Shown one piece after another: positions 4,500 through 38,400 of a stretch of DNA of 64,000 bases. How positions within the stretch are numbered: the first letter of the stretch is position 1; every line of letters starts with the position of its first letter. The notes below the pieces were generated by a model. That model saw nothing but the letters and a program-made list of their open reading frames with translations, was not told the origin of the DNA and did not search any database. The position numbers and the translations under genes were made by a program. The DNA is from Dipteris shenzhenensis (taxonomy: Eukaryota). The stretch lies in the NCBI GenBank assembly GCA_047967505.1, contig CM106538.1. One strand, 5' to 3'.

Positions 4500-7400
4500 G
4501 CCTTATGTTTTTAGAGGCCGATGCAAGTGATTTTGCGATTGGGGCAGCTTTATTCCAAGAGAGCAGACCTGTAGCTTTTGAGAGTAAGAAGCTCGACGAC
4601 ACCCAATATCGTTGGCCCACACTAGAAAAAGAACTCTATGCAGTTGTGTATGCTCTGACGGTTTGGAGACACTACTTGTATGATTCGAAGTTTCTTGTAT
4701 TGACCAATCATTAGTCAATCAAGTATGTGTGTGACGGATCAGAATTGAGGGGAAGAAAGGCTAGATGGGCAGACTTAATGCAAAATTTTGTATCGAAAGG
4801 GTTCCATGAATAGTGTGGCGGATGCCTTAAGTCGTGTCAAGTTTGTAAATGCTATGTCATTTACGAAAATATCCTCAGACCTATTTCAATCCTTGAGAGG
4901 GCCTTGCAAAACTGATAGTCATTTCAGTTCTTATTGGCAGAAAGTCCAGGATGGAAGCTCCATGGTTGACCAGGACTCATGGATTGTGCCACCTATGGTA
5001 TAGGCGGCTGGAGGTCAGTGGATGATTAGGAATGGCTTGTTGTTCCGGAATGGAAAGATATATGTGCCAGATATTTCGGATCTTTGATCCAAGATTCTCT
5101 GGGAGTGTCATGATGCTCCTAGTGCTGGAAGTATACATCGGACTCTATCTCTTGTGAAACATACCTTGTATTGACCTAAGATGCATGCATTTATTGAAAA
5201 CTATGTGGTAGGTTGCCGGGTTTGTCAAGTTACTAAGGCAGAACGCCTTAGAAGCACGGGTTTATTACAGCCCTTGCAAATCTCGGGTAATAAATGGGAA
5301 AGTATTTCCATGGATTTTATTACAGGTTTGCCTAGAACGCGCAAGGGTCATGACTCCATTTGGGTTATAGTGGACCGTCTGACAAAAATGGCTAGATTCT
5401 TACCTACTAGAACAACCATTTCAGCTGTTTAGCTGGCTCATGAGTTTGTGGACCACTTGTTTAAGTTGTATGGTTTACCACCTGACATACTCAGCGACAA
5501 GGACTCGAAGTTTACAAGTAACTTCTAGACACTTGTTTTTGAGAAGTTGGAAACTACTCTAAGTATGAGTTCCTCAGATCATGCACAATCTGATGGCAGT
5601 ACAGACAAGGTCAACCAATTGGTTGAAGATATGCTTCGGGCATATGTTTCTAAGAGACAGTCTTCATGGGAAGATTATCTTCCCATGATCGAATTTTCTT
5701 ATAACAGTGCAAAGCATTCGAGTACTGGTTACAGTCCTTTTATACTTATGTTCGGGTTTCAACCTAAGTCACCAGTTATGGTTGGGTTCAAGGTAATTCA
5801 AAATTATGCTGCAAAGACATTCTTGCAAGACATGCAAGAAATGTTACAATTTGCCAAGGAGTCTATTAGAAGTGCCCACGATCAAGACAGATTTTATGCT
5901 AATAGACATCGTTCACCCAGAGAGGTCTCTGAAGGAACAATGGTATATTTGCGTATTCCTAAGGAATCCAAGAGCCTAAGTACTCGTTTGGTTCCAAAAT
6001 TATCCCCCCTAGCTACTGTGGTCCTTTCAAGATTATTAAAAGAATTGGACCACTTGCATATAAACTAGAATTGCCTCCTGATGTAAAGGCACATCCAGCA
6101 TTTCATGTCAGTAGACTGAAAGAGTTACTGGGTGCGGATGATGAACTTGTTTCTCCTCAAGAAATAGTAGAAGTTACCAATTTGACTTTTATTCCACACA
6201 AACCTAAGTGTATTCTTGATTTTGTGGGAGACAAATTCGTAATAGAACTATCACGGAATACAAGATCAAGTGGAACGATCATGTTGAGGAGGATGCAACA
6301 TGGGAGACATTACAGAACCTCCAGAGGACATCCCTAGGTTTTTTAGCGAACTCAGGAGTGAATTCTTAGAGGAGGGAAAGTATGTCATGTGCACGGATTG
6401 GTATCTGACGTGTACTGGGTACACAAGACTAGCTCAAGTAGCCTGGGGAGGCTTAGGGCTAGGCAGGCTTGCTTCTCGGGTCGAGTAGCAAGGGTACGAA
6501 CCAATTAGAGGTCTTCACTATTTTTGGTGCATGGGGCAAAAGTCTATTTAAGGGGCCCAGAGGTTCAGTTCTCAGAGAGCCGATGGGAGCAAGTCTCGTT
6601 CCCAGGTACTAGGTCTGATCCTGGATTGAGTCGCGGACACGCCCTGCATCATAGCGTAGCCCAAGGCACAACAGTAGATCCCAGGCTTCACAACGCCACC
6701 TGATGGTATGGGACACCAAGCTGGTTAGGATCTGGTTGGGAGTTTGTGCCAGTAGCTCAGCTCGTGGCTCGGAGGGGACATCTCCTGATTCGGGATCGCA
6801 TCCCGTAGATGTCATGGTTGGATGGTAAGCAGCCTGCTTAGATTCCTCATGGTTGGTGTGTTCTTGTGTTTGCTTGCAGATCAGAGGTTTTAGAAGTGTT
6901 GGAGTCGTGTCAATTGGCACAGTCAATGTGGAATGCCATAGCCTTGCTTGGCAGTTGAGCTACTGTGCACTAGAATTGGATGCAGGTTGTAGCCAATGTT
7001 CGACTTGGACAGCGGAATTGATAGTGAAGAAAAGTACAAGGGTGAGCCCTTCTGGGATGGAAGCTTTCTCTCATGTTTTTCCCTGAACCTACAAGTTGGT
7101 TGCTAGGTCTAGGGCTGTGTGTCAGCGTTGGACAGTTTCAGTGTATGGAATTCACTACCACTTTGTACATGGAGGATCTCCTTCTGTACTCTAGTCAGCT
7201 ATAATATCCACAACTGGACAGCAAAGGATTGGCATGGGTAATAGCCTGGGTAGAGCTGTGTGGCAGTTGTTTTCTGTGCCAAAGGGATTGATGCTGGACA
7301 GTGCCTAGTTTGTTTATGTGGATTCCTTGAGCAGCTTGTCAGAGAATGATTGCTGCTTTGGATGTCAGCTTGCCAGAGAATTTGTTTTGCTTCTGGTTGC

Positions 7401-18559: not shown

Positions 18560-20440
18560 AGCCAGGTATTTGCACCCTACTTGGGAAAGTTCATAACAGT
18601 GTTTCTGGATGATTTTTGCATTTATTCAAGCCGTGTGGATCACTTGAAAAGTTGAGGATTGCATTGAAAAGTATTGATGACGCAAAAGGTTGCCTTAATC
18701 TTGCAAAATGCCATTTGGTCAGGAAGAAGGTGGCTCTGTTAGGACATGTTATCTCAGAGGAATGTATAGAAATGGATCCTGAGAAGGTACAGGAAATCAT
18801 GGCCCTTCCACCACCTAGTAATGTCAGAGAGGTGAGGGGCATTTTGGGTAAAACAAAGTATTACCAATGCTTTGTTGATATGTTTTCTAAAAAGATGTAT
18901 CCTATAAATTTATTGACAAAGAAAAATGTATCTTTCCAATGGGGACTAGAGCAAGATGAGGCATTTGTTTGCTTAAGGAATGCATGATCCAAAGGCCAAT
19001 TATGCAGCCTCCTAGGTGGGAGGATGATTTCTATGTGAATCCAAGTGTGTCAACTCATTCAGTGGGAGCTATACTACTTCAAAAGTGTGAGCAACGACGC
19101 ATGCAACCAGTGTATTATGCAAGTCGGCAACTCACGGAGGCTGAGGAGAGGTACGGTGAGATGGAGAAAGAAGGTTTATCTTTGGTCTTTGCAGTGAAGA
19201 AGTTTAGGTTATACTTGCTACCTCACCCTTTTTTCTTCCTTATGTCTCAACCTGCTTTACAATTTTTGGTTCGCAAACCCAATCCTACTGGAAAGTTTGC
19301 TAAGTGGATTTGTGAGCTTCAAGAGTTCTCTTTCACTTTTATTACAGAAAGCACCACTAGAGCTTTTCTGGCAAATTTGCTTACAGGTAAGGAGGAAGAA
19401 GAAGTAACAAAGGCAAAGGAAGACTTAGATGAAGAGTTGGAGACCCCGCCAATAGCTTTCAAGCTGCATTTTAATGGAGCCTTTAGCCCTTCTAGGAAAT
19501 GTGGGGCTTGGGGGATAATTCTATTTGATCCAGAAGGAAAAGAGGTATGGAAGGGTAGGCAATTTCCTGAAGCAATATCAAATAATGTGCTGAGTACAAT
19601 GCATTGATCTATGGATTAGAATGTTGCCTAAAGGAAGGAGTGAAAGAGGTAGAGGTTAAAGGAGACTCTCAACTAGTCATTAGGCAAATGAAAGGTGTTT
19701 ATAAGGCACAGAGTCCTAATCTACAAGATCTTTATAAAAGAGCGATGGAGTTAAAGGAAGCTTTTGAGTTTTGCAAGTATGTGCATATTCAAAGAAAAGA
19801 TAATCATCAAGCTGATGAGATCGCTACTAAAGCTATGGCTTCTTTCACTAAAGTTACTCTTGCATTGATAGATACAGGTCTCCCAGATGCAACTTGTAAT
19901 CATTTCATTGTGAAATATAAAGAAATACCGAAAGGGGCGCCACGGTTGGCCAGAGCTCCAAGATGTTCAATATTACTTGGATGAAGGACATTTTCCTCAT
20001 GGATTGACCCCTCAACAAAAGCAGAGGCTCACAAGGAATGCTCGTCCTTATAGAATCCTTGGGGATGTTCTATACAAGCAAGGTAAAGATAAGGTTCTTA
20101 GGAGGATAATGAGCTTGGAAGAATCTAAAAGGATTATGGAGCTATGTCATGAATGTTCAGGTCACTTTGCTTCAGCTAGCACTACTTGAAAGATCCTTAA
20201 CACAGGGTATTATTGGCCCCGACTCAACAAATATATCCATGAGTGGTGCCGAAGTTTTGAGGTATGCCAAGCATATGGACGTAAGCAATTGGTTCCTGGG
20301 CCCTTGAATCCCATTCCAGCATATGGTCCATTTGAGAGGTGGGGGTTGGATTTTGTTGGCCTCCTTTCTTGTTCTTCACAAGGGAAGTATTAGGTATTAG
20401 TTGCAATTGATTATGCAACTAGATGGGTGGAAGCAAGTCC
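18560..20440 (+). mobile_element. Ty3/gypsy pol fragment with an additional RNase HI domain (Tat-type): RT, RH, aRH, integrase N-terminus
   Basis: LLGHVIS..DPEKVQEI; PVYYASRQL..EKEGL; LHFNGAFS..SNNV..ALIYGLE..VKGDSQLVIRQMKG..N..AD; CHE..GHF..GYYWP..WGLDFVG..IDYATRWVEA. Frameshifted. Confidence 0.9.
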
Positions 20441-21130: not shown

Positions 21131-21970
21131 AATAAAACTAGCTCCGTGGTTTCCATTGAGTGTTTCCTATGTTTATGAAATATATTGCCTGGTTTTATTA
21201 TTATTTATACTTGCATGGTGATATGCAAGAATTATAACTAGCCACTAGTTATAAAATTGAGACATAAAAACACTTGAAAAACTTACAAACTTGCAAAAAA
21301 AATTACTCGCAAAATGTAAAAACCCCAAACATCCTAGTTGCTTAATAATCATGCGAAACATGTAGCTTGTCTACATACATCTGCAATGCACTATAGGAAT
21401 GTGTAAATGAGTTTTCATCATAATTCAATAGATATTTACAAAACTGCTTCTAAATTCATTGAAGTTTTAGGGCTTCTGACTTGATCTTTGGGATGCAATC
21501 TTGGACTTAGCAGTTTCTAGTCAATACTTTCTCAATCACATTGTCCATGCTCATCTAAGAATTTTTGGCAGCACATCTAATGAGAGTGCTCTCAATGAAA
21601 GTGGAACGGAAGAGGGTGAGAGAGAGGGAGAGCCAAAAGTGAGCCACACAAGTTTTGGTGGGTGCAGAACATCTTTTATGTCATCCATATATATATGTGT
21701 GTGTGTGTTTAAGTATTGTACATAACTGAGGTTAAGGCACAATGTCCTTTAACCCTCACAACCTTCCACTTAAAGTCTAATGTGTCTTTAAGGAAGATCA
21801 GCCAATGTACGGAAACATGGCTCAGAACTGTCAGTAAGGACTACAGAACTGTCAATTCAAAAAGGAATAAGATAATCTTTTGTCTGACTAACACGATTTT
21901 GCATTAAATATCTCCTTAGATTTTTTTTTGTTTACCAAAGATTCCGCATCTCTTTTGCCGACGTTTGCAG

Positions 21971-24953
21971 GCCTTTCATGAAGAATCCATCACTGAACTT
22001 GGTGATTGCAAGTTTTCAAAATATTCACATGGATACCGCCACACTTCCACGATTCATGTTATAAAACGACTATAAGATTGACAAACAAACTTCGCAACCT
22101 CAGAAGCACAAAAAATGGCCGATACTAGTGAGTCACTATCTCAGAAGAAGCGATTACACCATCTTCACATCGACTTAGAAGAACAATATGATCCAGTACA
22201 AAAAAAGGATACGGTGCTGAATGCTTAACAGCGGGAAAATATGAGAAGAGAAGGGCTTCAACATATTGACTTATGGTGCGATGGAAGCATATATCCAAAA
22301 TGTCAAGTAACAAACTCTACACCTCCATTTGACAATCCCACCACATTACTGAGGTTTGCCGGCGATGGACAAAATGGACTTCTTGGTTATATTTCAACAT
22401 AGTCTGCATTTGTGGAAACGTATAAAATGATGTACCTACAAGAAAAGGGGGCCAAGATGCAGGAGATAGCCATTCGTGCAAAATTGGAGCAGCAGTTGCA
22501 AAATGAAATTGAGGAGCATTCAAAGAGTAAAAAAGAGTTGATAAGAGCAAGAAAGAAGAGAATCGTACTTGGAGACAGACTATGTAGCAGGAAGATTAAA
22601 AACATTGCAAATTTGAAGGCTGGGACTGGTGGATGCAAGCGACGAATTCAGGAAGCAAGGTTAGATTGAAATTTATTATTTTGTATACTCAAAAAGGCTC
22701 TCAAATGACTATATCTATTTCGTCCCTTACCACAAAACAAGAATGGGGGTGTTGAATGATATAGGCATATTGTGTTGTTACTATAGGAAATTATTGGAGC
22801 CTGTAAAAGAAAATATGGATCCGAACCTTCTTCCTGTTAAACAAATGAAAGGATTGCTTTCTTGTGGTGTAGCAAAAGGTTTGATTGAGGAAAAAAAATA
22901 CAAAATAGTCAAACGCAATGTTGTAGAGGACTTTGTATCCAATAATCAAGTTGATGGCACTATAATCCAAGAGGCTCTTAATGTTAGTGGAGTTAGCAGG
23001 AAGGGATATAGTTCGATTTTCCATGCGATATCCTCAACTTTGAAAGATCAAAGGATTAAACGAGTTTTACTGCCAAATCCAGCAACCGTGTGGAGGATAA
23101 GAGGTCATTTGAATGAAAGTATAGATGAATTTATTGGGCAATATATCCATATTAAAGAAATATTTCATGGTGGTAAAGGAACCACTGTGTATGATCCTTG
23201 GAAAAATATATTTGTAGATCTACAACAACTTCAAAGAAGAATGGTCGAGTTTTATGGAATAACATTTGAGGAGTGCAAAGGCATTTTGAAATTTGTTATC
23301 AAACTGGATGAATGTGAGGTTGTAAAGGAAAAGAAAATGGAAAGAGTTACCATTACATTGATGAATGGAGCAATTGATACATCATTGACTGAAGCGAGTT
23401 CGAAGTATTTTAGTGTGCAGTCAGAGAAACACATATGGTGGTTAGGCTCGTTCCAGGTATGATCATTTTTTGTTTTGTACTTGATTTTGGTCATTGTTTT
23501 CAAATCTATTATAGTAAGACTTTTGTTTTCTATAATCTGGCAGGTGAAGATAGAAGACCATGAAACACTAGATTAGGTGTTTCACCACACAGGAATACCA
23601 AGAATAATCAAAAGACAAGTGAAGGCGAGAATCTCCATGTTGCAGGAAAAGGTGATTTTCAAGTAGAGTGGCACATGGCCGGGGATCTTAAAACACTTAA
23701 GTGCATGTATAACGTTAGTAAAGGAGGCAACTCAAAGTCTCCTTGTCTTTACTGCAAAGAATCAGCTCAAGTAATGGATTCAAAATGGTGGAAGAGAGCA
23801 CCTAATAGAGATAAAGTTGACCCTGACTTCAAGGCCATTCTGGACATTCCACTATGTAATGTTCACATCTGCACATTGCATGGTCTATGTCGAATTATTG
23901 AGAAATTGGTATTTTTATATATTGGATTTGCTTGGAAATTCCGTCCCGAAAAAAATAGAAAGGATGCTCTTCAAGCATTGGAAAAAGTGTTATCCGGTCT
24001 GCATGGAGGAGATGTTCAAATCACAAAGGATTTTAAAAAGTCTACCAATGGCAAGGAGGTACCAATCAAGCCCTCTATTGGTGGTGTTAAGGCAAGAAGA
24101 TTCTTGTCTCGACCCAAACACAGTAAGCAAGTAAGGCAAGGTAGAACAGTTTCAAAGATTAATTATGGATTGTGGAAGCAAGTCCATAATGCTGTGAAAG
24201 ATCATGAGGCAGATGGGGAAGCACGAAATAGGAAGGCAGAGGTGTGGAGGTCTCTTGATCAACTCTTCATGTTCTGTGACAAAGTAACATGGACAAAGAG
24301 TGATTACAAGAACTTTGAGGAGGCAATTAAACATTTTGGGAAGTTAATGAAAGACGCGTGGACAGCCTGCAATATAACTCACTACATGGTAAGGTTCTAT
24401 CTTCTTCTTTTACTTAAGTGTGATCCTCTTTTTTTTATTACTTACTATGCATTCTTATGTCTTACAGCATATCATCTACAACCACCTTCCCTATTTTGTC
24501 AAAAAGTATGGATGCCCAGCAATTTGGTCTACCCAAGGCATGGAGAAGTCTCACTACATGGCACGTAATGCATTTTTCAGACACACACAACACTATGGAG
24601 GGAGTCAAAAGGCAAATAGTCTAAAAGAAGTCTTCCAATGGTTTTACCGAGGCATACTACAGAGGCTGCATGCTAAAAGAAAAGTTGCTAGCTCCAAAAT
24701 CAAGCTTGCTTTTCTTCTAGCCCAAAAGCAAAGACGAAGACAAACTCTAGACAATTCAATGGTAGCAGAGAGACATAGACAATGGAGGGAATCGAAGATA
24801 TTTAGAAACCATAAATGGACAAGTAAACATGAATACAACTCATTTGTAACTTATTGGTGTTATGTCCACATGTTTTCAGACTCAATCAATAGAATTTTTT
24901 TTTGTGGAACAAGTGACTCTTGGTGTTATGCATCAAAAGTATTTCTTTTGTGA
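21971..24953 (+). pseudogene. RAG1/Transib-like DDE transposase, intron-containing and disrupted (exons ~21971-22659, 22787-23456, 23544-24388, 24468-~24953)
   Basis: Motifs in order: KFVIKLDE, HMAGDLK, SKSPCLYC, ICTLHGLCRI, THYM|HIIYNHLP, WSTQGMEKSH. These parallel RAG1 core D600, D708, CxxC, DALH, TNYFHKTLAHVP and WASEGNESGNK. GT-AG junctions keep the frame; several stops and one frameshift. Confidence 0.78.
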
Positions 24954-25246
24954 AACATATGATCTAAACGTAATACAATTTGTTCACAATTTCAATATAT
25001 TGTTTGTTTAATATTTAACAACACCACTCTATCTAAATGTACAAATCATTTCATCTTCAACTTATTGTTCATTTATACAAGATCATACCAGACATCAAAG
25101 ACTTTGTACAAATCAGTTTAACTTTAATATAATGTGTGGGAGTCAACTATTCCAAAGCAAAAACATTTCTCATCATCAAGGAAGAATTCCACAGGGCCAA
25201 AGATAGCAAAACAATGAGGTAGAAGTGAGAACTAAATCAGACATAG

Positions 25247-26880
25247 GAATTTGCAGCAAAATGCGATGGGGGACCATTTGGAAAATATAAAGCACTCTCC
25301 TCGCATTTTGTTGCAAATTCTCCAGTTCTGTTCATATGCATGTCAAATCAAACACTAGGTTCATCTCATTGATTCCTAGACAGTATGATTTGATATGCAA
25401 GAGAAAGGCTGGAGCTGAGTGAAGCTTTTCATGAGGAATGTGTCAACAACAGGAATTTGCAGCAAAATGCGATATGGGCTACTTAGAGATGTATAAACCA
25501 CTCTCCTCGCATTTTGTTGCAAATTTCTAGGTTCTATTCATATCCATCTCCAATCAAATTCTTGGGTGATTTGGTGATTTACCACATTCTTGGATAGTAT
25601 CAATTGAATATGTAACAAGAAGGGTGGAGCTGAGTGAAGACATTTGGACATAAAAAATCCAATGGATGGAAGAAATATATGTCAAAAAACATTGAAAACA
25701 ATCTAGAATTCTGACCTTTTTTTTCCTTTTCCATGCTGTTGGAGTTGCACTGGTGAATCTTCTGCTCTTTCACTAGCTTGAACTCTGCACTCTAGGTAAC
25801 CTGGAGATCTGGCAGTGGTAGTACTCTTCAGGTAGGTTGCAGTCTGGATGGAGTGTGCTGGGTAGGAAAGGATCAGAGAGAGAAGGAAATGGAAGATGCG
25901 AGGGTCCTGGCAGGGATGAAAGATTGGGAGGCAGGGGAGGGAAGAGTGGTTGTGGAATTGATTATGAAATCATGAATGGCACAAGTTCCAAGGCATAAAG
26001 TGTACCTTTCACACGTGCCAAATTTCAAACTCCAAGAGATCTGGGTCCCATCCACACGTGTGAAAAACAACTACATTCCACATGTGTGGGATTTAGTAGC
26101 TGCCTTATTTGTATTTTGCACTTATTTGTGGTATCCTGTCTCAGCCCTCTTGCCCTCCAATCTTTGCTCTCTTGCCTCCCTACCTCCATACTCTGCAACA
26201 TCAGCATCCTGACCAGCGGCACAGGTTCATCCCCAGCACAGGGTACTCATCAACAGCACAGCACATCCACAGATAGATTTCAGGTCAGTAATAATGGGCT
26301 CTTCCCTCAGTCTCTGCAATCTTCTTGCTTACCATAGAAACAATCCATCCTGCATGGAAATGCATAGACTCAATCCATATTTTATTTAGTTGTCAAGACA
26401 GAGAAATCACTGTAGGAATGCAGATCTTCAAGTGTGATATTTGCATGTGAGGGTAAAACTGTACTTATGGGTTCTTCCTTCAGTCTGTCCACACTTCTTG
26501 CCTTCCATAGACTCAATCCATCCTGCATGGACATGCAAACACCTTCAAATGACTGAAGGCATATTCCAGCATGCTCCCTCATGAATTTGCAAGAAAACGC
26601 GAGGAGAAGGCCTTAGGAATTTCAAACAGCCGAAATCGCGTTTTGTTGCAAATATTGAAACGTTGCTTCATCCACCCCTATCATTCTGGTTTTGTGACTT
26701 CCATAGCTAACCATGGCTGTACTCTTCTTGCATAAACTCCATTCATACTGTATTTAGTTGTAAAGACAGAGAACTCACTGTAGGAATGCACCAACATGTC
26801 ATTTCAGGAATTTGCAGGAAAACGCGATTTGGACCTGTTAAGAATTTCAAACTCCTCGTATCGCGTTTTATTGCAAATTT
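25247..26880. repeat. Four palindromic modules (20 bp inverted arms, 33-34 bp spacer)
   Basis: GAATTTGCA..AAAA(T/C)GCGA-N33/34-TCGC(A/G)TTTT.TTGCAAAT at 25247-25320, 25453-25526, 26583-26655 and 26808-26880. Confidence 0.9.
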
Positions 26881-26985
26881 TTCAATGTTGCTTCATCCAC
26901 CCCTGTGATTGCCTTTTTTTTTTCAAAACATGTTCTCCATGGCTGTAATCTCTTTCCATTGCTTTCTATGCAGTTTGTCAGAGTG

Positions 26986-28309
26986 ATGGCAAGAACCAAG
27001 TCAACTGCAAGGAAAGCTGGCAGGTAGATAAGGTTAAGATTGTTGAAGTAACCCACTCAAAGAACACCAGAGGGAAGACTGCTTATGAGAAGTCATTGAA
27101 GCAGCAAATAAAAGAAACAAAATCTGTTATAGATGTGGAGACTGGAAAGAGGGAGCTGCAGATACATAGAAGGTTGCAGGAGCTGGGCCCTAATATAGTT
27201 GTCCATATTGAGGATGAATTTTCAGTGAATGATTTTGACTTGACAAAACCATGCTTGGCAGCATTGGCTCATAAGAATGAGTATTGCTCAGATACTATCA
27301 TTCTTGCAATGCTCTAGTAAGTGTCTATTATTTTACATTTTTGGCAAAACAATCCTCCTTGTACCTCCTTTATACCCTACCCTAATTATTTTTTGGTCCT
27401 ATGCAGCATGATGAGAAGTTGGCTTCACCCCTCTATACAGCATACAGTCCATATTATTGATCCTGCCATTTCTTCTAAGTTAAGAGATGCAAAGGAAACT
27501 CCCATCAGTATTTCCAGCTGGTTCAGACACTGCAATTTTGAAGTAATTGATGTTTTGCTACTTCCATACCATAACAGGTATGTGGGTGACTACTTCTTTT
27601 AAGATTCTTCTTTAAGATTGAGAACTCTTGCAGCCTTTGATTTCCTAATGCTTTTTTCCTTATGCAGTGACCACTGGATTTTTGTTTCTATTGACATCCA
27701 CCAGTAGAAGCAATGCTTTATATTCAACTCTCTTAAAAACACACACAGAGAGCTGAAATTGTAAGTGTTGTGTGTGCTTTTTGAAGTTAAACTTCATTAT
27801 TTTGATATCATACTAACTAAATTATATATATTGCAGTTGCATTAGAAGGCTTCTAGATGCATTGGATCACTGTCCTCCTAATGTCTCTCTTTTGGATTCA
27901 ATAGAGCCAATAAATCTAGAGGTAAAAAATCGTTCCCTCTACTGATGTCTATTTCATGCTATGCCTTTGAACTTATTGAATAATTTTGTTTTGTTCAGAT
28001 GTTAACAGTTTCTAACATATCTTTCCAACTGTACAGACACCACAACAAGATGATTCTAGTAGCTGCGGATGGAGAGTGCTGATCAGTGCAAAATATCTAC
28101 TTTCAAGCTATTTTGAGAAAGAATAGCCAGACCTTGTAAGAAAAAATAATTTTCATTTAGCTTGAAGAAAATTCATAATGATACAAAGTGTTCTAAATTA
28201 TCATATGCCATTGCAGATGAAAGAAGATAGCTTCAGCTCAAACTATGTATATAATTTTAGAGCTCATACAATTTGGAGGTTTTTGAGCTATGCCTCCCCC
28301 AAACTGTAC
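26986..28309 (+). pseudogene. Ulp1/peptidase C48 (SUMO-protease-like) gene with H3-tail-like N-terminus; six exons, disrupted
   Basis: Exons ~26986-27316, 27407-27577, 27668-27760, 27837-27921, ~28037-28135, ~28218-28309. Spliced motifs YCSDTII..LLLPYHNSDHWIFVSID..FNSL..PQQDDSSSCGWRV..FRAH. Starts MARTKSTARKAG with a 1-nt frameshift before the main frame; two in-frame stops. Confidence 0.82.
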
Positions 28310-28557: not shown

Positions 28558-29105
28558 ACTGAAAATAATATTGAATTCATTCAAGTGAGAAGCACTGGAG
28601 ACCCCTTCTTCATTTACAGCTCAAACAACCTCTTCATGAGATAAACTTTATTAGGCAGTTTCCTTCTCATAAGTGACACATAATTTCTTTCACAATTCTT
28701 CCTTAGTCTGATCATTTACTATTGTGAAATAATTTAACTTTGTAAGATGAAATCTAACAGTAGACTTTGCTAATGTATCATACTCATTCCAATCATCCTC
28801 AGACATAGCTGTAGACTTAGCTCTAATTCCGTGCTGAAAATAATATTGAATTCGTTCAAGTGAGAAGCAATGGAGATCCCTCCTTCATTTACAGCTCAAA
28901 CAACCTCTTCATGAGGTAAAATTTATTAGGTAGTTTTCTTCTCATAAGTGGCACATAATTTCTTTCGCAATTCTTCCGTAGTCTGATTATTTACTATTGT
29001 GAAATAATTTAACTCTATAAGATGAAGTCTAACAATAGACTTTGCTAATGCATTCTACTCATTCCAATCATCCTCAGACATAGCTGTAAGCTTAGCTCTA
29101 ATCCT
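28558..29105. repeat. Tandem duplication of ~275 bp inside copia gag
   Basis: ctgaaaataatattgaattc..cagacatagctgta..ttagctctaat occurs twice (~28559 and ~28834). Confidence 0.9.
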
Positions 29106-32100
29106 TTCCAAGGATTTGATCTTATTCTTTTGAACAAGCATGTCCCTTCCATAAAGGAAAAATTTTCCCATCAAACTTTTTAATATTGAAAAAATCATTT
29201 TCAGACATGGAAGAGGATGCCATGATGCAAATAAAGCAAAATCCCAAATGTTAGTGCCTGCAAGAAAGAATCACACCAAAAAGTCAGGTGCACCAAATTA
29301 TGTATGCCACAAGGGAAGGAAATATCATAAAACCTCAAAGGCTCAAAGCATTAAAAAATGCAACTGACTCATGTGTATATATTGTGCATCCATATGAGCA
29401 AATCTGGCCCAAAAGAAAATGTCAAACTGCAATGACAAAACAATGATAAACGCAATGCCAATAAGAACCAAATGCCTCAAGCATAAACACCGTCCATGGG
29501 CATAAGCATCAATAATGTCTCATCCAAGAGAGCATAGTACTATCAATGCATTAATTGCAATGTGTCAAAGATGTCTCAGCATAAAATAACATCTGTGTAC
29601 TAAACGTCCATCAATAAAGCATCCCACAAGGCAATTTGAACCTATTAGCGCATCCAACAAGAATCGCAATGCATCGAAATGGCCTGTAAAGCATCCACTG
29701 CAACCCAATGCAAACCACAAATAAGAGCACATGGCTCAGATTGCAACCAAAGTGACCTGCATAAGGTATGTTTCAAAATCATGGGCCCACAACAATGGTC
29801 GCTACTGAAAATAAAATCTCAAATGTCTCAAAACCACTGTAATCTTTGAATACACGGCATTAATGACATGACCTACACTTTCTATGACTCAAAGAATACT
29901 TCTAGAAATCACTCTAGATGTGAGGTGAACCCAAGTTAAAGCTTGCGATTGACCTGTAAATGAAACCTTAGAAGCCTAAGGTTCAATAAAAAAATGCCAC
30001 TGTAAAAAATCAAAGGTTGGAACCTTTGAGTGGAATTTTGACAGAGAAACAAACGATTCGACGTCTCAAAGAGATGGAACTTCTCCAAATCTCCATAGAA
30101 TCATGCAAGAGTTGACAGATAGGGGTTTTTAGGCCTTTGGAATGAAATAAAATAGACGATTTTGATAATCGTGGTCCCAAACATGGAGTCCAACACACAG
30201 ATTGAAAAATATTTTAACAAACACATACGTTTGTAAACACCATCGGAGTGCGAATGATGAGCAACACAGATATTTTAAGACCTCCTGAGTCCACCGAAAC
30301 TAACAGATTTGCGAATGGTTGCTTTAAACTTGAGTTCCAACACATTGGTAGAAAAACAATAAAGCAAAGACAATGAGTCAGAAATCCAACGAAATGATCC
30401 CAGATTTAAGAATGAAGGGGTTTTCAAACTCTCAAAGTGCAATGGACACCCAAAGCAAGCAATGGTTGCCTCTGCGAGTCATTCAAGACTCTCAGTCGTT
30501 GAAAGAAACAGGGAAATCATCGAAAAACATCTTTTTGCTCCAAAACCACATGTAGGCTTGTAAATAACCACTCAAAGACTTCCATAAACCACTTGCAGGC
30601 TTCTACAAGGTTCCAATACCACCTGGAAAGCTCCAAAAAGCACCCACAGGCTTGCTCTGTCTTCCCACAGAGCTATAGGAGTAGAGTCCAAGCTCCAAGC
30701 ACACACATGGGCTTAGCTAGATCACCCACAAGCATCAGATAGACCACTCGAGCTTTGATACCAATTGAGAATGCTCTCAACGAAAGCAGAATGGAAGAGG
30801 GTGAGAGAAAGGGAGAACCAAAAGAGAGTCACATAAGTTTTGGTGGGTACAAAACACCCTAATCTTCTATGTCATCCATATATATATACATACGGTGTGT
30901 GTGTTTGAGTATTGTACATAACCAAGATTAAGGGACACCAGCCTTTAATCCCCACATCTAATACCATGAAGAAAAGTCATGATCCGAGAAGTCAAAGGAT
31001 ATAACAAGACAGGAAGTGCTTGAGCAAGAAACCAAGAAAAGAGCAACGTATGCAAGAAAAGAAAAGGCCTGAATAGTCGATCATATTCCAGAGACCCACG
31101 GATGTCCTTATAAAGATTACAAACTAGTAAAGTGAATATGTAGTCCATTGTAGCAACTAATCCAGACTTATACAAAGTAAGTGTTCATCACTAAGCTAAT
31201 ATTTGGAGTTAACCAATACCTTTGAATAAATCTATCACACTCTGATGGTGCAATGAGGAAGGAAGGATTCCATGGAATGGGACCAAACACAAAGTTGATC
31301 CCTAAAGTGATTGATGATAATGTCAATGCACACAATCCAAAGGACACAAGTGGTAGGAATAGAGTTGAGAGAAAGAGAGAATTTATTGAGTCTTAACTTA
31401 CTAGATGAAGCTAGAGTAATGGCCATTCTACCTTCAACATAGCTTTGGTCTTGATTTACTCGATGAAGCTCAAGTAACGTCCATCCTGTCTGCTTATCCT
31501 TTGCATTGAATGACTTTGTTTGATCAAAAAATATAAGGCTTCCCTAGTGAATTAATAGTTGTTGCTCTTCAAGAATCCAACGTGGCACTATTTTGTCAAG
31601 AACATGGGTGTTGTATGAGGCAAAACTAGAATCTATAAATGTTCAAAATGCAAGGGCAATCCAAGAGGCACAAATGAGTTTTGCAAAGAACTGTGAAGAA
31701 GTGAGAATAGAGAATGCAAGGGAAAAAATTGCTTTAGCACAAAGATTGGAAGACGTCCAAAGGAGGAGAGAGGAAGCTATGCGGCCACCCACAATTTGAA
31801 TGTAACTAAAACAATTTCGCAACACAAAGAGATAACCAAAGCATATAGTGCAATGAACGTAGAGAATGAGAAAATTCAAAAAGGAATCTCTTGCTCATGA
31901 ATTGACAACTGTATGAAAAGAAAAGAAGCCACATGATAAATAAACTAGACAATTCCTAAATGAGTATGCCTATCTTGTAGATATTTTAAGATGGTATTAG
32001 TGTTCATAATATAAATCAACTTTAAGAGATTCGGCATGTGGAAAAAATAAAATTTAAGAGATTGGACATGTGGAACAAATAAAATTTACACATAGTTAAT

Positions 32101-32788: not shown

Positions 32789-35464
32789 CTAAGTGTAGAG
32801 AGGGCAATGTGGGAGATGGGATACAACACCACTAGTGCTTGAAAGGGCACAAGAGGCAAGAGGGCAATGGTCTGAGAATTTTTGGCCACCCCACCAATCA
32901 AGGCCTTGGCCACGAAACCCCATTGTCAGACTCAAGAATACACCCATGATTGCAGTGCCTGCATCTAATGCAGCCGATAGCACATAGTTGTAGCGCTTCC
33001 ACCAATCTTTCCGATATCGTAAGATATAGAAGTTGAAGACCATGCCCACCACAAACCAAGATGTGTAGTTGATAGTTCCTGCAGCTGGCATCCAACCCAC
33101 GGCCCCGAGCAACACAGGAACATTTATGAGCTTGATCCAAGGTGCAGCTCGGGGGAAGGCTTTGGCCAACAACCACACCGCCACAGGACCCACTAGCCCA
33201 AAAATTAGCACCCAATACATGAGATTCTTGTAAGGACCTTGATTTCCAAAAGTCCTACTAGGGCCCAACACCCCCCATACTATGGTGGTGTCAAAGGCAA
33301 CTACATCCCAAGGGCAAGTCCATGGACTTGAGGTGTCAAGCTTTCCGTCCACGTTGCACATGTGGGGTATCTTATACAACCACCATGCAGTACCCAGGTC
33401 CACTGTCCCTGCGACTACGGTACCTATCACCTGCAATATCCTTAAGTTAGGTGAGCTTTGGAAAGATTTATGTATTAGTGGTAAGCTCTTTAAGAAGCAA
33501 TGTAACTCACCTGGACCAAGAACATGCTCCTAGGAGGGATTTTCATATAATGTCCGAGCTTGAAATCTACCAAGAAATAGATGGCTTGCTGCATGCTCAT
33601 GTGTCCAAACAACTTCAGACCCTGGTTTGCGATCGGATTCCCAGGAAACAGGTACCCTCCGACGAATTGCATCACCACCATCAATGACGGCGTCTGCCAC
33701 CACACACACCCCTACATCGTTACGGGTTTACCTATACACGTCAATCAAGCGAAATCGAGAGAAACCATTTCGACTTATATACCTACCAGATTTGTGGTAG
33801 CTGCGATCACCCCGATGGGTAGCGTCAGGGCTGCAGCTATGGAGCAGCCCAGCACAACTCCCCACCATGGAATCCCTACTTGAGCCTTGAACTGCACACA
33901 AATCACGATAACCCCCACCAAGCACATCACCAAGAGCCCCAAAAACCATCTGTCTGGGATATCTGGGTAGTGGCTCATCAATCGAGTATGCACATCCGCA
34001 CGCCGCTTCCCCGCGTAGTGCTGCAAGGTTTCCCTGATGTTCAGAAGACCAGGATTAGAAGCGTTGTTTGACGCTGCAAATTATCTTCACGAAAAGGTAC
34101 CACTAAACAAAGATTGATACCAGCTACTTACGCGCCGTGAAAGAAGACGAAATGAGTGATCGTAGCCAATGGAGCTGCGAACAATAAGGCGAGGCTAATT
34201 GCAAAGAAGCTACTCAAGTACAAGTCTCCTTGTGTGAAATCTCGTTGTAAAGCAGCTGTAACGTTATATACACCCCCGGCTGCCGTGAACAGTCCCGATG
34301 ATATGATTGGAAAGTTCTGAGCTTTGTAGGCGTTGCTCCAGTAATACGTAAGGGGCGTTACTATGTAGATTATGGCTCCAGCTCCTACCGCCATGTTAAC
34401 GAGGACCGATGCAGGGTACACAAGTGGGCTACCTAAGAACGAGGAAACCGCAGCCCAGTCTAGTGTGAATGCCCCGACTCCGAGTCCTCTGTAGCCGGAA
34501 CCTATCTGTTGGGCCTTTACGGACCTCGGCCAAATCAAACATGCCAGTGACATGCAAGTAAGGAACGGCATAAAATAGCCTGGGAGAACGTAGTATGCAA
34601 AGCTCACGATCGTCATGATGTAGAAGCTTTGAATCCGCGACAGGCCCGATCTTCCCTTGTTTTCATCTGTTTCATGCAACGTCCTGGACATCCCACCATA
34701 TATAATTTACCTTCATTCCGTCCAAAACTGGGAGCTCTCAGAAAATTGAAGGGCACTCAGACTCTTACCTGAATACAGTCACCTGCACCATGGTAGTTGG
34801 CCACCACATGTGTGCAGGATCAATCAACTGCTTTCGCATTAAGCCAGCCCAACCATATCCAATCAACTGCAAAATTTATCTTCAGCAAGAGTGAGCTTTG
34901 CAACGCTATAGCAAGTGTGCAATCGGAGTGCTTCTAGTAGATACGTACCTGACTTGAAAGCACGAGAACGAGAGCTACAGCGAAAGTAATCCGTAAGTGG
35001 TAAAATAGCTTGATAAGGTTCACCATCTCAACGGCAAAAGCCCCTCCATAACCAAATGCATTCCCTGCATTGGCGAAGATAGTGATAAGCACATGTTCCT
35101 TGACACTGAAAGGTCCTGGATTTAGAGAAAAGCCCCAATCGCGGAAGGGGATCCGGACCACGGTTTTGGGAAGAGCATATGCCAAGAACTGGCCCATAGG
35201 AAGGGCTGCCAAAGTGGCTGAGAGTGCGGTAATCTTCATGGGTTCACTACGATACTGGAAGAACTGGTTGACAAACGCTAGCCCAGCGCAAGAGGCCAGG
35301 CCAAGAACCCACATTCGGACTGTCCATACAGGGAGTGTTGGATCATCAGTAGTAGCTACTGTCATGGCGACTTCCTCAACTGGTGAGACCTCGTCGTCTG
35401 AAAAGGCAACTTTTTCCTGCTGGCCGGTTTTCCCGAGTGGAATCATCTCGACGTTTATCGTCAT
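32789..35464 (-). CDS. OPT: Oligopeptide transporter (OPT family); exons 35464-34949, 34866-34769, 34683-34132, 34033-33787, 33693-33511, 33430-32789; 745 aa
   Basis: Signature motifs SPVEEV, DDPTLPVWT.RMW, NPGPFSVKEH, KLGHYMKIPPR and YNYVLSAALDAG. Canonical GT-AG introns give an open 2238-nt CDS. Confidence 0.95.
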
Positions 35465-38400
35465 GATAACCCGTTGGAAGCAAATATCCAGAGGCGTCTA
35501 ATACAGGCAGCAGCAGGATGCGTCACAAGCAGAGCTCTCCCTTGGCGTTGGAGAACAAGTATGATGAATCGAAATCCATGGCACAGGGTTTCTCTTGGGG
35601 TCTATCGTAGAAGAAAGAGTTCCCAAGGATAAACGTAACACAAGGACGGAGAGCAGGAGGGGAAAAGATCTCTAGGATCGATGCAATAAGTGTAGACGGA
35701 GAAGAGCGATGGGGCTGAGAGGGATCGCGATGGCGATGTAGTAACAGAGCAGAATCCAGATGCACGTTTCTTTGACTGCTTTTCCAGCAACCTGTCCACG
35801 CTCAATTCCAAAGGCATTTTTACCTTTGACAAGACCTTTCATTTGGCATTTTGGAGGGAGTAAATTTTGGAAATCTAGGAGGGTTTAAGTGGCGTGCCTT
35901 GGAGATCCAAAATCAAAAAGAAGATGAACGGGATGCCTAGTAGGAAAAAAGAGGGGGGGGGGGCGGGAGAGAGAGATGACTCACCAAGAACTAAAGAGGA
36001 ATGATACTAAAAGTGGCAACAAATTATACAATTCAAAAAAATAAACAAATCCAAACTTGCAAAATTTTTATTTATATTTTCATATTAGATTTTTCATATT
36101 TTCAATAAAGACCTTCAAAATTTTCAACTTAAGGTTTTTTATGTGTTTAGGAAAATGGTTTCTCTCATCGTTGGTTTTTTTCTAAATAAATAGGCCTAAT
36201 TTATGAAGGGGGTGGTCAGCCCTATCAAAAAATAGATCAACATTCTTTGGAGGTTTGGTCCCATGCAAGATGAAACATCTCTAGCCTCGCTAGAAAAGTC
36301 GATGTGAACGGAGGTTTAGCTTGTGAATTGGAGGTGCAAAACTTATCTCCTTCCATTCGACCATTCTCCTCGTATGCAACTTTTGGGTGGGGTCCAAAGA
36401 GATCTACGCTCGCGTCTTCATGATGGAGTGTATACCTTCTAAGTAGGTGTCATTCTCTCTACACATTTGAAGTTTGTCTCAACCACTGTACCTTGCTAGG
36501 CCTTTCCTCTGAGTCTATCCCGTCTATACATCATCTCTCTGCATCAACACGTAAGAAAGCAATGGATTGGAGCTGTGCTTACAGCGATGTAACCATCAAA
36601 ACATCCATCCATGTGACAAGAACTTCTAAACTTATGTTTAAAGAAGAGACTCTTGGCACTCCCTCCATAGAAGAAACCGTGTTAACTCTTCAACCTTTCA
36701 TGGCCCCTGACATGCTATCTATATGAGCATCTAGAGTTAGTGCAATGTACTTCTAAAAAAATATCGTAAAATGGATCATCTATCCCTATATAACATGCTA
36801 AATCTAGAATTTCAAATATCTAAAACAGCTCTCTCGACTTTAAAAATTTGAAACTATCAAACAGACACACCATTTTCAGCTAGAATCAATTGGAAAACAT
36901 TGTGATTTTCGAAAGAAAATTCATCTATACAAAAAGGTATGTCTCCTCCCAACAAGTGAGATAGTGAGGTAGAGAAAGAAAGGAGGCAGCGCATGAGATA
37001 TTGAGGGAGAGAGGCTGAGGGGAAAGAGAGAAAGGAGGGAAAGCACTGAGTGCTGAGGGAGAGAGAAAGGAGATTGAGGAGGGAGCGAGAAATGAGATTT
37101 AAGAGATGGCATTTGAGCAAAGGAAGAGAGGGCGAGGGAGGTGAACAAAAGGGGGGGGGGAGAGAGGACGTATGGATAGAGGAAAGGGGGGCAGTTGAGT
37201 ACAGGAGGAGAAGACAAAACTCGTTTCACGAAGATTCCAGACTTTGTCGAAAGGGGCATTCACAACCTTTATTAATCATTCGCAGGTGGATAACTCACTA
37301 ATACTAATTAGGAATTTTTGAACATCATGGGCTCATCATGGGGACCTATTTAGCAAGCAGTGTAAAAAACAAAGAGCTAGTTTTTTTTTTGGGGCAAATT
37401 TTTGACACCCTCGAGGACTTTGGGGCAAAAATATGGCTCAAAAGTAAAAAACTATCACCAAAGATTTGACTAAGATAAGATTTTATAGCCATTTCATGAT
37501 ACTATTAAACATACTTTTCCAAGGAGGAGTGTTGAAAAATATACAAGCAATAGGTTAGCATTCTACTTGTCCTCCTTTGATCAACTATGCTAGGGATAGC
37601 TTAGCAGAGTACGGCTCTAGAAATTTTAATTGCAAATCCCTTTTTAATCCATTAAGTAGAAAAACTTGGCAAAATGCTTTATCAGTTGCTAATTAGGCTC
37701 GTGCGTCACCATATCATAGAAATAGAAAGCTCACCTAGCTATTAAATCAAGAATCTTCTAAATTAATGGAAATTTTAGAAGTGCACATAGTTTCACAAGA
37801 AGTTAGCAAAGTCTCTAATTGGACGTAGTGTCTGTATCTTGATTAGCAATGTCTTCCAGGTCACCCACTAGCAATTACAAGAATTCCATGCAAGCATTTA
37901 ACACACGCACCCTCCTTTTAATAACGACACGTATTGAAATATTAAGGCACAAAAACAACTCACCATGAATAAATTAAAGTCATATCATCATATCATCATG
38001 GTTGCGTTCTACACTAAGAGATCTTTCCATATGCATTTACTACTTCAAATTTCGACAATGCATGCAAAACTTACATGATTTTGAGACATTTTCAGCATAT
38101 GTTTTTTTTTTGGGGGTTTAACCCCCTTTTTAGGATATTATGTAAAATATGCCAAAATCATAAGATCTTGCATATTTTGTAAAGGATATGGTTTATGCTT
38201 TGTAAATTTTCATATTTCCCCTTATGTATTTAAGACTTTTGTAGAAGCATGCATATTCTACACTTGAGTGTAGTAGTATAATACATATTGAGTTGAAGAG
38301 GGGCAATGACACTCGGGTCGGAATCAATCTAGGAGTCAGTGTTCACTGAAAACTGAGGTCTAATGTTAGGTGGATGAATGGCTCAAAACCTTTAAAATTT

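Follow-up and report, generated by a model that had tools for sequence, protein, structure and literature searches.

The H3-like peptide encoded at ATG 26986 of the window (the whole stretch of DNA that was analysed, 64,000 nucleotides) is, very probably, the leftover N-terminus of a decayed and internally deleted member of a repeated gene family, in which a histone H3 and an Ulp1-like protease are joined in one protein. In intact members of this H3-Ulp1 family a single reading frame runs through an MARTK.TAR tail, a complete H3-type fold, a linker, a long helix and an Ulp1/C48-like domain, which is spread over 4-5 exons.

The H3-like peptide and the exons behind it

On the + strand, positions 26986-27027 encode MARTKSTARKAGR, which is closed after 13 codons by a TAG (27025-27027). 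Nine of the ten residues of the H3 start MARTKQTARK are identical in this peptide. A degenerate DNA pattern for MARTK.TARK, searched with up to two mismatches, matched a single place on both strands of the 64 kb and was found in none of 100 dinucleotide-preserving shuffles. The H3-like peptide reported in the preliminary description is thus real, and it is a true H3 N-terminus and not a product of chance. Codons 1-12 (MARTKSTARKAG, 26986-27021, + strand) are the remnant start of an H3-Ulp1 fusion gene, and 16 relatives share this start. The alternative that the peptide arose by chance, or that a transposon recently captured just the 5′ end of a host H3 gene in this lineage, can draw on the frequent capture of gene fragments by plant transposons (PMC13317346). 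Its probability is nevertheless negligible, given the outcome of the shuffles and the fact that relatives only 35-60% identical to each other bear the same N-terminus on a full fold. Upstream of the peptide, the pyrimidine-rich tttctatgcag (26963-26973, + strand) ends in AG 12 bases 5′ of the ATG, and from its sequence it may be the acceptor of a 5′-UTR intron. Other copies vary at 26966 and 26974/26977; the AG is retained.

The rest of exon A (27022-27316, + strand) lies in a frame offset by one base, in which the last part of the linker (VDKVKIVEVTH..) is followed by a helical stretch and then by the beginning of the C48-like domain (..SDTIILAML). This exon is 54-78% identical to the protein fragments P0002, P0003, P0005 and P0012, and is collinear with positions 883-1017 of L001, a metagenome contig. 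Four further exons follow on the + strand. Exon B (27407-27577; ..IIDPAISSKL...VLLLPYHN) belongs to the C48-like domain, has GT-AG borders and matches L001 1277-1453 and fragment P0052. Exon C (27668-27760) carries the His box (DHW..) and is homologous to the His-box exons of L001 and of a second locus, L002; it contains an in-frame TAG (27705-27707), and an Asn codon (27726-27728, in FNS) in place of the catalytic Asp of SENP1. Exon D (27837-27921), again C48-like, is collinear with L001, where it is joined to the next exon. The Gln...Cys box (TPQQDDSSSCGW) is encoded by exon E (28037-28136), which has its Cys codon at 28064-28066 and matches L001 1784-1879; an in-frame TAG interrupts it at 28124-28126, where L001 continues open. 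As had been described, this offset frame (ORF 26949-27317) does lead into exons with C48 motifs.

The tail and this offset frame had been joined on paper by a single-base frameshift. What lies between them is instead the junction of an internal deletion of about 0.45 kb, located at base 27022 (+ strand). Contigs assembled from two sequencing runs (X1 and X3) cease to match the window at this base, on both sides of it. In full-length copies the letters preceding the junction read as the family linker (..LLIPPTRK..), and the contig of another copy runs on past 27022 in the tail frame into a Gly/Pro/Ala-rich, family-like tail. On either side, the point at which other copies part from the window is base 27022, and the fold-less layout of the window copy is therefore the result of a deletion. 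Missing at this point, by comparison with L001, are about 150 codons, namely those for the remainder of the tail, the entire histone fold and the greater part of the linker, and the two sides of the junction meet out of frame. With 6, and then with 12, family or H3 proteins as queries, tblastn found matches in the window only at 26991-27584, and no remnant of a histone fold. The earlier remark that no histone fold follows the peptide is therefore correct for the window copy; it does not hold for the gene family, whose other members have the complete fold. The stop after 13 codons, together with the two later stops inside the protease exons, means that the window copy is unable to make a tail-protease protein. 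It is a pseudogene, and no functional protein comes from the locus.

The preliminary description had seen in the locus a fold-less mimic of the H3 tail, fused straight to an Ulp1 protease, which would act as a decoy or recruiter of tail readers and writers and would be functional at or near the locus after a trivial frameshift. Taken alone, the window copy invites this reading: the sequence leading to the C48-like domain starts within 36 bases of the tail, and the family does conserve tail residues. However, in every relative that reaches this region a full histone fold is located between tail and protease, other copies part from the window precisely at the junction, and the junction is out of frame and followed by two further stops. 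We consider the tail-mimic reading very unlikely, and for this locus it is largely refuted; the window copy resembles a mimic because its fold was deleted. Short histone-tail mimics are found outside the histones, in viral and methyltransferase proteins among others, and they resemble the present case in having an H3-like ARTK or ARKS motif on a protein of other activity. Those motifs are convergent and stand without a histone fold, whereas in intact relatives of the window copy a homologous H3 fold comes right after the tail. The term 'mimic' does not suit the family, since its motif is a genuine N-terminus that belongs to a homologous H3.

Architecture and conservation of the H3-Ulp1 family

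The intact arrangement is best seen in L001. Its ORF extends from MARTKQTARR via the fold and the linker to the C48 start and, with GT-AG introns placed at the positions homologous to those of the window, no stop interrupts the 459-470 codons that extend across the His and Cys boxes. Whether the peptide can be in frame with Ulp1, a question raised by the preliminary description, is thereby answered: in L001 both belong to a single open frame. The linker conserved in the family reads KMRDILLIPP.RK...VK.VEVTH..TR.K.

Searching with exon A (HMMER) gave seven matches, six of which were short fragments of the H3-Ulp1 family. P0004 (2110 residues, 28% identity in nine stretches) was discarded as a false positive, a repeat protein. 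With P0003 as the query, a word-index search yielded 18 fragments, and no longer relatives of P0003 were present among 200 candidates, which is weak evidence. In alignments of the fragments that extend far enough upstream the histone fold is continuous with the homologue of window exon A. The close relatives, all of them fragments, are 61-172 residues long and stop short of the N-terminus, and for this reason the link between tail and fold rests, in the close lineage, on one loose contig end (30 letters) and on more distant relatives. A wider protein search supplied 26 proteins, 16 of which begin with M[AGT]RTK followed by the same fold and linker. At least eight relatives from the fern Adiantum nelumboides, named as hypothetical proteins, were among the matches listed. 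The metagenome loci L003-L024, which matched over the fold only and at about 40% identity, were taken as ordinary H3 genes. The sole H4 found among the metagenome loci is truncated and is located in L009. No description of an H3-Ulp1 fusion was found in the full texts searched, and one may exist elsewhere, for instance in subscription journals or repeat-database reports. Members of the family were found in at least one fern, as well as in several plant-like assemblies.

R2, T3, K4 and T6 of the tail are invariant in the 16 relatives (16/16), A1 and A7 are kept in 14/16 and R8 in 13/16, and conservation in the family tail is highest over the first eight residues. The preliminary description had regarded as fatal to its proposal intact homologues lacking the peptide or having it out of frame, or a lack of K4/K9 conservation among copies. 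For K4 this refutation fails, as R2, T3, K4 and T6 are retained throughout. K9 fares differently: next to the near-perfect H3 start of the window (9/10), just half of the relatives (8/16) keep this lysine, and S10 of the H3 tail is not retained in the family. When the window is compared with L001, five of the nine leading codons (A1, R2, T3, T6 and R8) show synonymous changes only, a sign of selection at the protein level.

The histone part of the family was recognized by the Pfam Histone model (PF00125) in L001 (E 1.8e-18), L002 (5.8e-28), P0012 (2.5e-19), P0030 (1.4e-27) and P0034 (1.8e-29), in all cases passing the cut-off. In a phylogenetic tree one long branch, with support 100/100, split 23 family folds from 16 ordinary H3 sequences. 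When P0003 was compared with PDB sequences, the best 60 matches were all H3-type chains, at weak significance (E 0.04 over 30 residues). The histone part of a predicted structural model was of moderate confidence (pLDDT 62-74); a fold search with this model placed H3, CENP-A or Cse4 chains in 47 of the top 50 positions, with a best E of 0.032 and no match at E ≤ 0.001. The family shares with ordinary H3 and its variants the N-terminal ARTK.TAR and the same fold, which is 40-48% identical to solved H3 chains over about 84 columns. It differs from ordinary H3 in a tail that is shortened and rewritten beyond residue 9, in the signatures Trp for Phe84 and AAHAH for AIHAK, and in the lack of a stop after alpha 3, where the chain instead goes on into a linker and protease domain of about 300 residues. 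PFQRLVR, the His of AAHAH and RVT.M.KD, which we take to mark DNA contacts and the H3-H3′ interface in ordinary H3, are mostly retained in the family alignment.

Assignment of the C-terminal part to the C48 proteases is based on single-exon scans. The His-box exon of L002 scored above the cut-off of the Pfam Peptidase_C48 model (24.5 bits, E 2.7e-5; cut-off 20.7), whereas that of L001 remained below it (17 bits, E 0.0055). The L002 exon had 19 matches in the PDB, every one of them a C48-type (Ulp1-like) cysteine protease (E 0.16-1.7), with the catalytic His aligned. Exon B and the Cys-box exon, including that of L001, gave no Pfam or PDB match. For the part of P0030 that follows the fold, the nearest clusters in a language-model search were plant Ulp1 at 0.82, a value that serves as a lead only. 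The window copy has the His (HW) and the Gln and Cys (Q..SCGW), and L001 has the His and the Cys. Like SENP/Ulp1 proteases, the family has a His box that aligns with that of SENP1 including the catalytic His, and a Gln...Cys-Gly-Trp box, in the same order. Unlike in SENP1, the position of the catalytic Asp is occupied by Asn in all three copies in which this exon is present (window, L001 and L002), and the targeting region is a histone instead of the usual N-terminal extensions. Because of this Asn, protease activity of the family is putative.

Copy number, neighbourhood and the question of mobility

From one sequencing run, 1162 contig pieces matched a 1.4 kb segment, with identities ranging from below 90% to above 99%. 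Matches were obtained in 20 sequencing runs, each of which contained at most 0.15 of the words of the stretch. Some of the matching runs are labelled as air or plant metagenome, from which we drew no conclusion about habitat or species. Several family fragments are frameshifted, and many are frameshifted or truncated. RNA reads were few, 23 and 9 in two runs; none was ≥99% identical to the window copy, and no splice joint was seen at the listing threshold.

The window copy lies amid retroelement and hAT remnants. On the same strand and 2 kb upstream there is a transposase-like gene with three large open frames (22665-24953, + strand), which may supply the carrier element with its transposase. 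Its ORFs had no Pfam match (E ≤ 10) and no PDB sequence match, and the single-sequence AlphaFold model was too poor for use (pLDDT 41). In a language-model search RAG1/Transib-like clusters (0.92-0.94) were among the nearest, with a recognition value below the guide line, and hence as a lead only; the third ORF may resemble the active-site region of RAG1. Just upstream of the H3-Ulp1 relic, 26288-26910 is taken up by an array whose diverged repeat units each contain a palindrome of 20 bases (AATTTGCAGGAAAACGCGAT / ATCGCGTTTTATTGCAAATT), and a similar array is found at 25245-25560. The transposase-like gene and the relic are enclosed by direct repeats of 180-190 bases, 81% identical, with the left copy at 21581-21760 (+ strand) and the right copy at 30766-30956; this is the only repeat bracketing the region. 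Between 20400 and 32000 there were only short or weak pairs and no convincing terminal inverted repeats, and neither element ends nor target-site duplications were found at the window locus.

The high copy number, together with the widespread decay, suggests spread by a mobile element. We consider it fairly likely that such an element spreads the H3-Ulp1 gene, with the transposase-like neighbour as the candidate source of its enzyme. The same observations may be read in terms of an ordinary host gene family, in which duplication, without any mobile element, multiplied an H3 variant that has a protease extension, and the window copy is a dead paralogue. This would agree with the failure to find element ends, with the neighbours of L001, which differ from those of the window (the L001 gene is accompanied by a phosphatase-like ORF and not by the transposase-like gene), and with the existence of intact-looking members whose tail is constrained at the protein level. 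The contig pieces of one run, over a thousand in number and graded in identity, the many frameshifted or truncated fragments, the paralogues named in a single fern, and the position of the window copy among transposon remnants and next to a transposase-like gene all speak against it, and we regard a host family as rather unlikely.

Possible function of intact members and known parallels

Our best guess for the intact members, put forward tentatively, is a SUMO protease brought to chromatin by its own histone. The histone module would pair with H4, and would be deposited in chromatin or ride the H3-H4 chaperone pathway. The SUMO protease would thereby sit on nucleosomes and could strip SUMO from silencing factors. 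The tail appears to retain the neighbourhood of K4 and to have largely lost the contexts of K9, K27 and K36; with these contexts largely lost, nucleosomes containing the family histone would be poor substrates for repressive methylation. In its most specific form, which we think improbable, though conceivable, the proposal is that an element-borne histone, built into nucleosomes, would plant a SUMO protease in chromatin; the element would thereby alter the chromatin lying over it and escape SUMO- and H3K9-dependent silencing, an anti-silencing device made from a histone itself. The anti-silencing role proposed in the preliminary description is likewise conjectural.

Alternatively, the histone module might not enter nucleosomes at all, but serve as a bait, which binds H3-H4 chaperones, or readers or writers of unmodified ARTK, and either brings the protease to them or titrates them. 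Such a role would fit the conservation of the first eight tail residues, the long branch between the family fold and ordinary H3, and the size of the C-terminal extension, which a nucleosome would have to accommodate on both of its H3 copies. On the other hand, the residues presumed to contact DNA or to form the H3-H3′ interface are mostly retained, and C-terminally tagged H3 is widely reported to enter chromatin. We rate the bait mechanism as a doubtful possibility, slightly below the chromatin-bound protease.

Each half of the fusion has parallels among known transposons. Plant Mutator-like elements (KAONASHI or KIU, and the VANC-Ulp1 genes of VANDAL) resemble the present family in that a C48 SUMO-protease-like domain was multiplied with a repeated element, and for VANC-type genes with an Ulp1 domain anti-silencing activity has been reported, with the role of the Ulp1 domain itself stated to be unknown (PMC13317346). 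The carrier of those genes is Mutator-like and they have no histone domain, whereas here a complete H3 precedes the protease and a Mutator transposase was not seen. The fungus Pyrenophora tritici-repentis has a divergent H3 gene, H3L, which was amplified by a DNA transposon and has truncated and frameshifted copies, as in our family; H3L is, however, a stand-alone histone without a protease, and its carrier is a hAT element (PMC3538342). The C48 peptidases of oomycete Cryptons offer another case in which a mobile element has a C48 domain among its accessory genes, but with a tyrosine-recombinase carrier, no histone and other hosts (PMC3212892). Ulp1-like proteases are recurrent passengers of plant transposons, in an unknown role, and transposon-borne H3-like genes are known from one fungus.

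For annotation, short MARTK open frames beside Ulp1 exons in these genomes are to be read as relics of this fusion gene and not as new effectors. A complete H3 with invariant ARTK, joined to a protease in one protein, suggests a testable idea, namely targeting via chromatin or via the histone supply chain. Regarded simply as an H3 variant, the H3-Ulp1 family would be unusual as well.

The relic in the window and its deletion junction

Positions 26986-27027 (+) of the window read as MARTKSTARKAGR followed by TAG, and the encoded peptide matches the start of H3 at nine of its first ten residues. A degenerate search for MARTK.TARK that tolerated two mismatches at most found one match in the window and none in 100 shuffles. 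The sequence tttctatgcag ends 12 bases 5′ of the ATG. The frame one base off that of the ATG is open from 26949 to 27317 and leads, through GT-AG introns, into exons having the motif order expected of a C48 protease (..LLLPYHN, DHW.., ..FNSL.., ..QQDDSSSCGW). The peptide and the continuation of the offset frame, both reported in the preliminary description, are thus real, and their presence in the window is not due to chance.

The two frames had been thought to be joined by a single-base frameshift. Contigs from two DNA sequencing runs (X1 and X3) were aligned to 26800-28200 at 85% likeness, together with raw reads from a pair of RNA runs; the matches listed comprise 16 of 1178 contig pieces. 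Among the matches listed, one X1 and three X3 contigs match rightwards from 27022, where they are preceded by linker-like sequence (..LLIPPTRK..). A second X1 contig follows the window as far as 27022 and then runs on for 134 letters, which in the ATG frame encode a Gly/Pro/Ala-rich stretch resembling the family tail. Position 27022 is thus a deletion junction. Relative to L001, a metagenome contig carrying an intact relative, the window copy lacks about 0.45 kb, or some 150 codons, comprising the rest of the tail, the histone fold and the greater part of the linker. The junction base is in codon position 1 on the left side and in position 2 on the right side, so the apparent frameshift is nothing other than this junction.

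No remnant of the fold was found anywhere in the window. The protease exons are broken by two stops in frame, a TAG at 27705 and another at 28124, and L001 reads through at the position of the latter. The window copy is dead, an ordinary pseudogene.

Five X3 contigs, one X1 contig and two RNA reads lack 3 bases of the window sequence at 27698, just 5′ of the TAG at 27705. The H3-Ulp1 family is polymorphic at this position.

Architecture and conservation of the family

Searching a representative library of 1.8 billion proteins with the 122-residue open frame gave seven matches, six of them short fragments; a match of 2110 residues was disregarded as a repeat protein. Two of these fragments, P0003 and P0008, reach upstream of the residues homologous to VDKVKIVEVTH of the window, and this upstream part resembles the last H3 helix, followed by a linker ending in ..MRDILLIPPTRKSK. 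Residues 4-27 of P0003 fall on the C-terminal end of the Pfam Histone model (E 2e-4, below cut-off), and its best 60 PDB sequence matches, all weak, are H3-type chains. A word-index search with P0003 retrieved 18 fragments from source contigs of 0.55-1.3 kb. In alignment A1, P0012, P0017, P0020, P0022 and P0023 have a complete or nearly complete H3-type fold (Pfam Histone on P0012, E 2.5e-19), continuous with the linker and with a homologue of exon A, whose part at 27022-27316 encodes the linker end and the beginning of the C48-like domain. By our reading of the fragment ends P0016, P0019, P0020, P0021 and P0023 go out of frame, which gives the picture of a decaying repeat family. The unrelated fragments P0016, P0046 and P0056 share their first five residues (MLFRS) ahead of the family sequence, which probably reflects adapters or contig ends of the assemblies they come from.

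Scanning metagenome contigs with the fragment alignment yielded 24 loci. L001 and L002 are 47-50% identical to it over fold and linker; the remaining 22, matching in the fold only (~40%), were taken as ordinary H3 genes. A single open frame of L001 encodes MARTKQTARR, a Gly/Pro/Ala/Lys-rich tail, a full histone fold (Pfam Histone, E 1.8e-18) and a linker (..KMKDLLVIPPVRRGKDKVKIEDVTH..), and runs on into the first part of the C48-like domain. The downstream exons of L001 are collinear with those of the window, and with GT-AG introns at window-homologous positions 459-470 codons can be read without a stop, beginning at the ATG and taking in the His and Cys boxes. This answers the check proposed in the preliminary description: the H3 start of an intact homologue shares its frame with Ulp1, but a whole histone intervenes. 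Likewise, the earlier statement that no histone fold follows holds for the window copy and fails for L001 and the family relatives.

Directly 3′ of the intact L001 gene, at 2808-3371 (+), lies a NIF/FCP1-type phosphatase domain (Pfam NIF, E 1.6e-17), separated from it by a Pro/Ser-rich open frame on the same strand. The domain may be a further module of the H3-Ulp1 protein or belong to a neighbouring gene; this phosphatase-like ORF has no counterpart in the window.

A profile search with alignment A3 returned 383 proteins. Among the best 120 of these, the top rows are members of the H3-Ulp1 family, at least eight of them hypothetical proteins of the fern Adiantum nelumboides, and the remainder are ordinary H3. 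Sixteen of the 26 retrieved sequences start with M[AGT]RTK, followed by a family-type fold and linker; P0030 and P0052 extend into the next C48 exon. Over these 16 N-termini R2, T3, K4 and T6 are invariant (16/16), A1 and A7 are each present in 14 and R8 in 13, and K9 in eight (Arg in five; Pro, Gln and Trp in one each). Position 10 is never Ser (0/16), G11 and G13 (12/16 and 11/16) belong to a G.GP..A motif, and the family tails show nothing recognisable as the ordinary H3 contexts of K27 and K36. Comparing the window with L001, all differences in the codons of A1, R2, T3, T6 and R8 are synonymous, hence it is the residues that are kept, not the DNA. K4 and its neighbours are constrained and K9 is not, so that of the two lysines whose conservation was at issue only K4 is kept in every N-terminus.

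In an unrooted tree of 23 folds of the family with 16 sequences of ordinary H3 from the A3 search, which includes neither centromeric H3 nor H3 of the window species, a single branch (length 0.92, support 100/100) divides the two groups; this shows separation, not direction. The family alignment retains PFQRLVR, the His of AAHAH and RVT.M.KD, which we take to be DNA-contact and H3-H3′ interface positions. An AlphaFold model of the family protein P0028, made with a 24-row family alignment, has the expected histone helices with moderate pLDDT (62-74), a linker without order, a long helix predicted confidently at residues 181-231 (pLDDT 85-94) and a small sheet-and-helix unit opening the protease domain. 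Foldseek with this model gave no match at E <= 0.001 (best 0.032); chains of H3, CENP-A or Cse4 fill 47 of the first 50 places.

The protease was scanned against Pfam and PDB exon by exon. The His-box exon of L002 scored above the Pfam Peptidase_C48 cut-off (24.5 bits, E 2.7e-5) and that of L001 under it (17 bits); the remaining single exons gave no match. Each of the 19 proteins matched in PDB by the L002 exon is a Ulp1-like cysteine protease of C48 type, with the catalytic His aligned. Opposite the Asp of SENP1 YDS this exon has Asn, as do the window (FNS) and L001 (MNS). For the part of P0030 following the fold, the nearest language-model clusters are plant Ulp1 proteins (0.82), a lead only. 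The domain appears C48-like, and its catalysis is putative.

Copy number, transcription and mobility

In run X3, 1162 contig pieces fall on 1.4 kb of the relic region: 196 with identity of at least 99%, 356 with 95-99%, 478 with 90-95% and 132 below 90%, a spread that shows a large, old repeat family. Summed depth, which is not copy number, stays at a few hundred before 26940, reaches about 20,000 on the tail and lies at 50,000-460,000 on the protease exons. The two RNA runs gave 23 and 9 reads on the relic region, mostly on exons; none of them was at least 99% alike to the window copy, and the listing threshold was reached by no splice joint. Relatives of the window copy are transcribed at low level in the organism of the RNA runs.

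Three large open frames at 22665-24953 (+), 2 kb upstream of the relic, look like one interrupted transposase-like gene. They contain CxxC and His-rich motifs and had no match in Pfam and PDB sequence searches; RAG1/Transib-type clusters were among the nearest in a language-model search (0.92-0.94, recognition value under the guide line), and a single-sequence structure model was unusable (pLDDT 41). Between this gene and the relic lie diverged repeat arrays (25245-25560 and 26288-26910) with units of ~150-225 bases, each carrying a 20-base palindrome with a ~30-base loop; these may be protein-binding sites of the element. A direct repeat of ~190 bases (21581-21760 and 30766-30956, 81% identical, 9.2 kb apart) brackets gene and relic, around which no terminal inverted repeats were found. 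Just 3′ of the relic stands a tandem pair of a 269-275-base unit (28559-29102, 92% identical). Other mobile-element remnants are an RT-RNase H domain of an LTR retroelement (18960-20400, +, Pfam E 5.6e-22), a hAT dimerisation domain (2950-3480, +, E 1.1e-4) and, by our own reading, an integrase-like frame (5529-6068, +). Several long open frames at 32789-35497 (-) resemble multi-pass membrane transporter exons; the closest ordinary host gene is probably this one.

The family is likely to be carried by a mobile element because of its copy number, the kind and ends of the element being candidates only. The large copy number thus favours the transposon-borne nature proposed earlier, whereas the absence of terminal inverted repeats and the different neighbours of L001 speak against it.

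Known systems and possible mechanism

Plant Mutator-like elements (KAONASHI, VANC-Ulp1) have multiplied Ulp1 domains, whose role is stated to be unknown in a review that nowhere uses the word 'histone' (PMC13317346). Crypton elements contain C48 peptidases (PMC3212892). In Pyrenophora tritici-repentis a hAT element multiplied an H3-like gene, which, unlike the fusion described here, stands alone (PMC3538342). Full-text literature searches, of incomplete coverage, did not find an H3-Ulp1 fusion. As far as could be found, the family is an undescribed variant of transposon-linked Ulp1 proteases and transposon-linked H3-like genes.

Domain order, conservation pattern and the death of the window copy are matters of observation; what intact members do can be proposed from their sequences. 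The conserved linker stretches DILLIPP and VK.VEV resemble, by our own reading, SUMO-interacting motifs and are putative. The main rival to incorporation into nucleosomes is that the protein acts as a bait or decoy for chaperones or ARTK readers, a reading we hold only slightly less likely. Our preference, a tentative one held at less than even odds, is that intact members would be incorporated into nucleosomes, because the interface residues look kept and H3 tolerates C-terminal fusions. The histone module of intact members would target their protease either to chromatin or to the supply chain of H3-H4.
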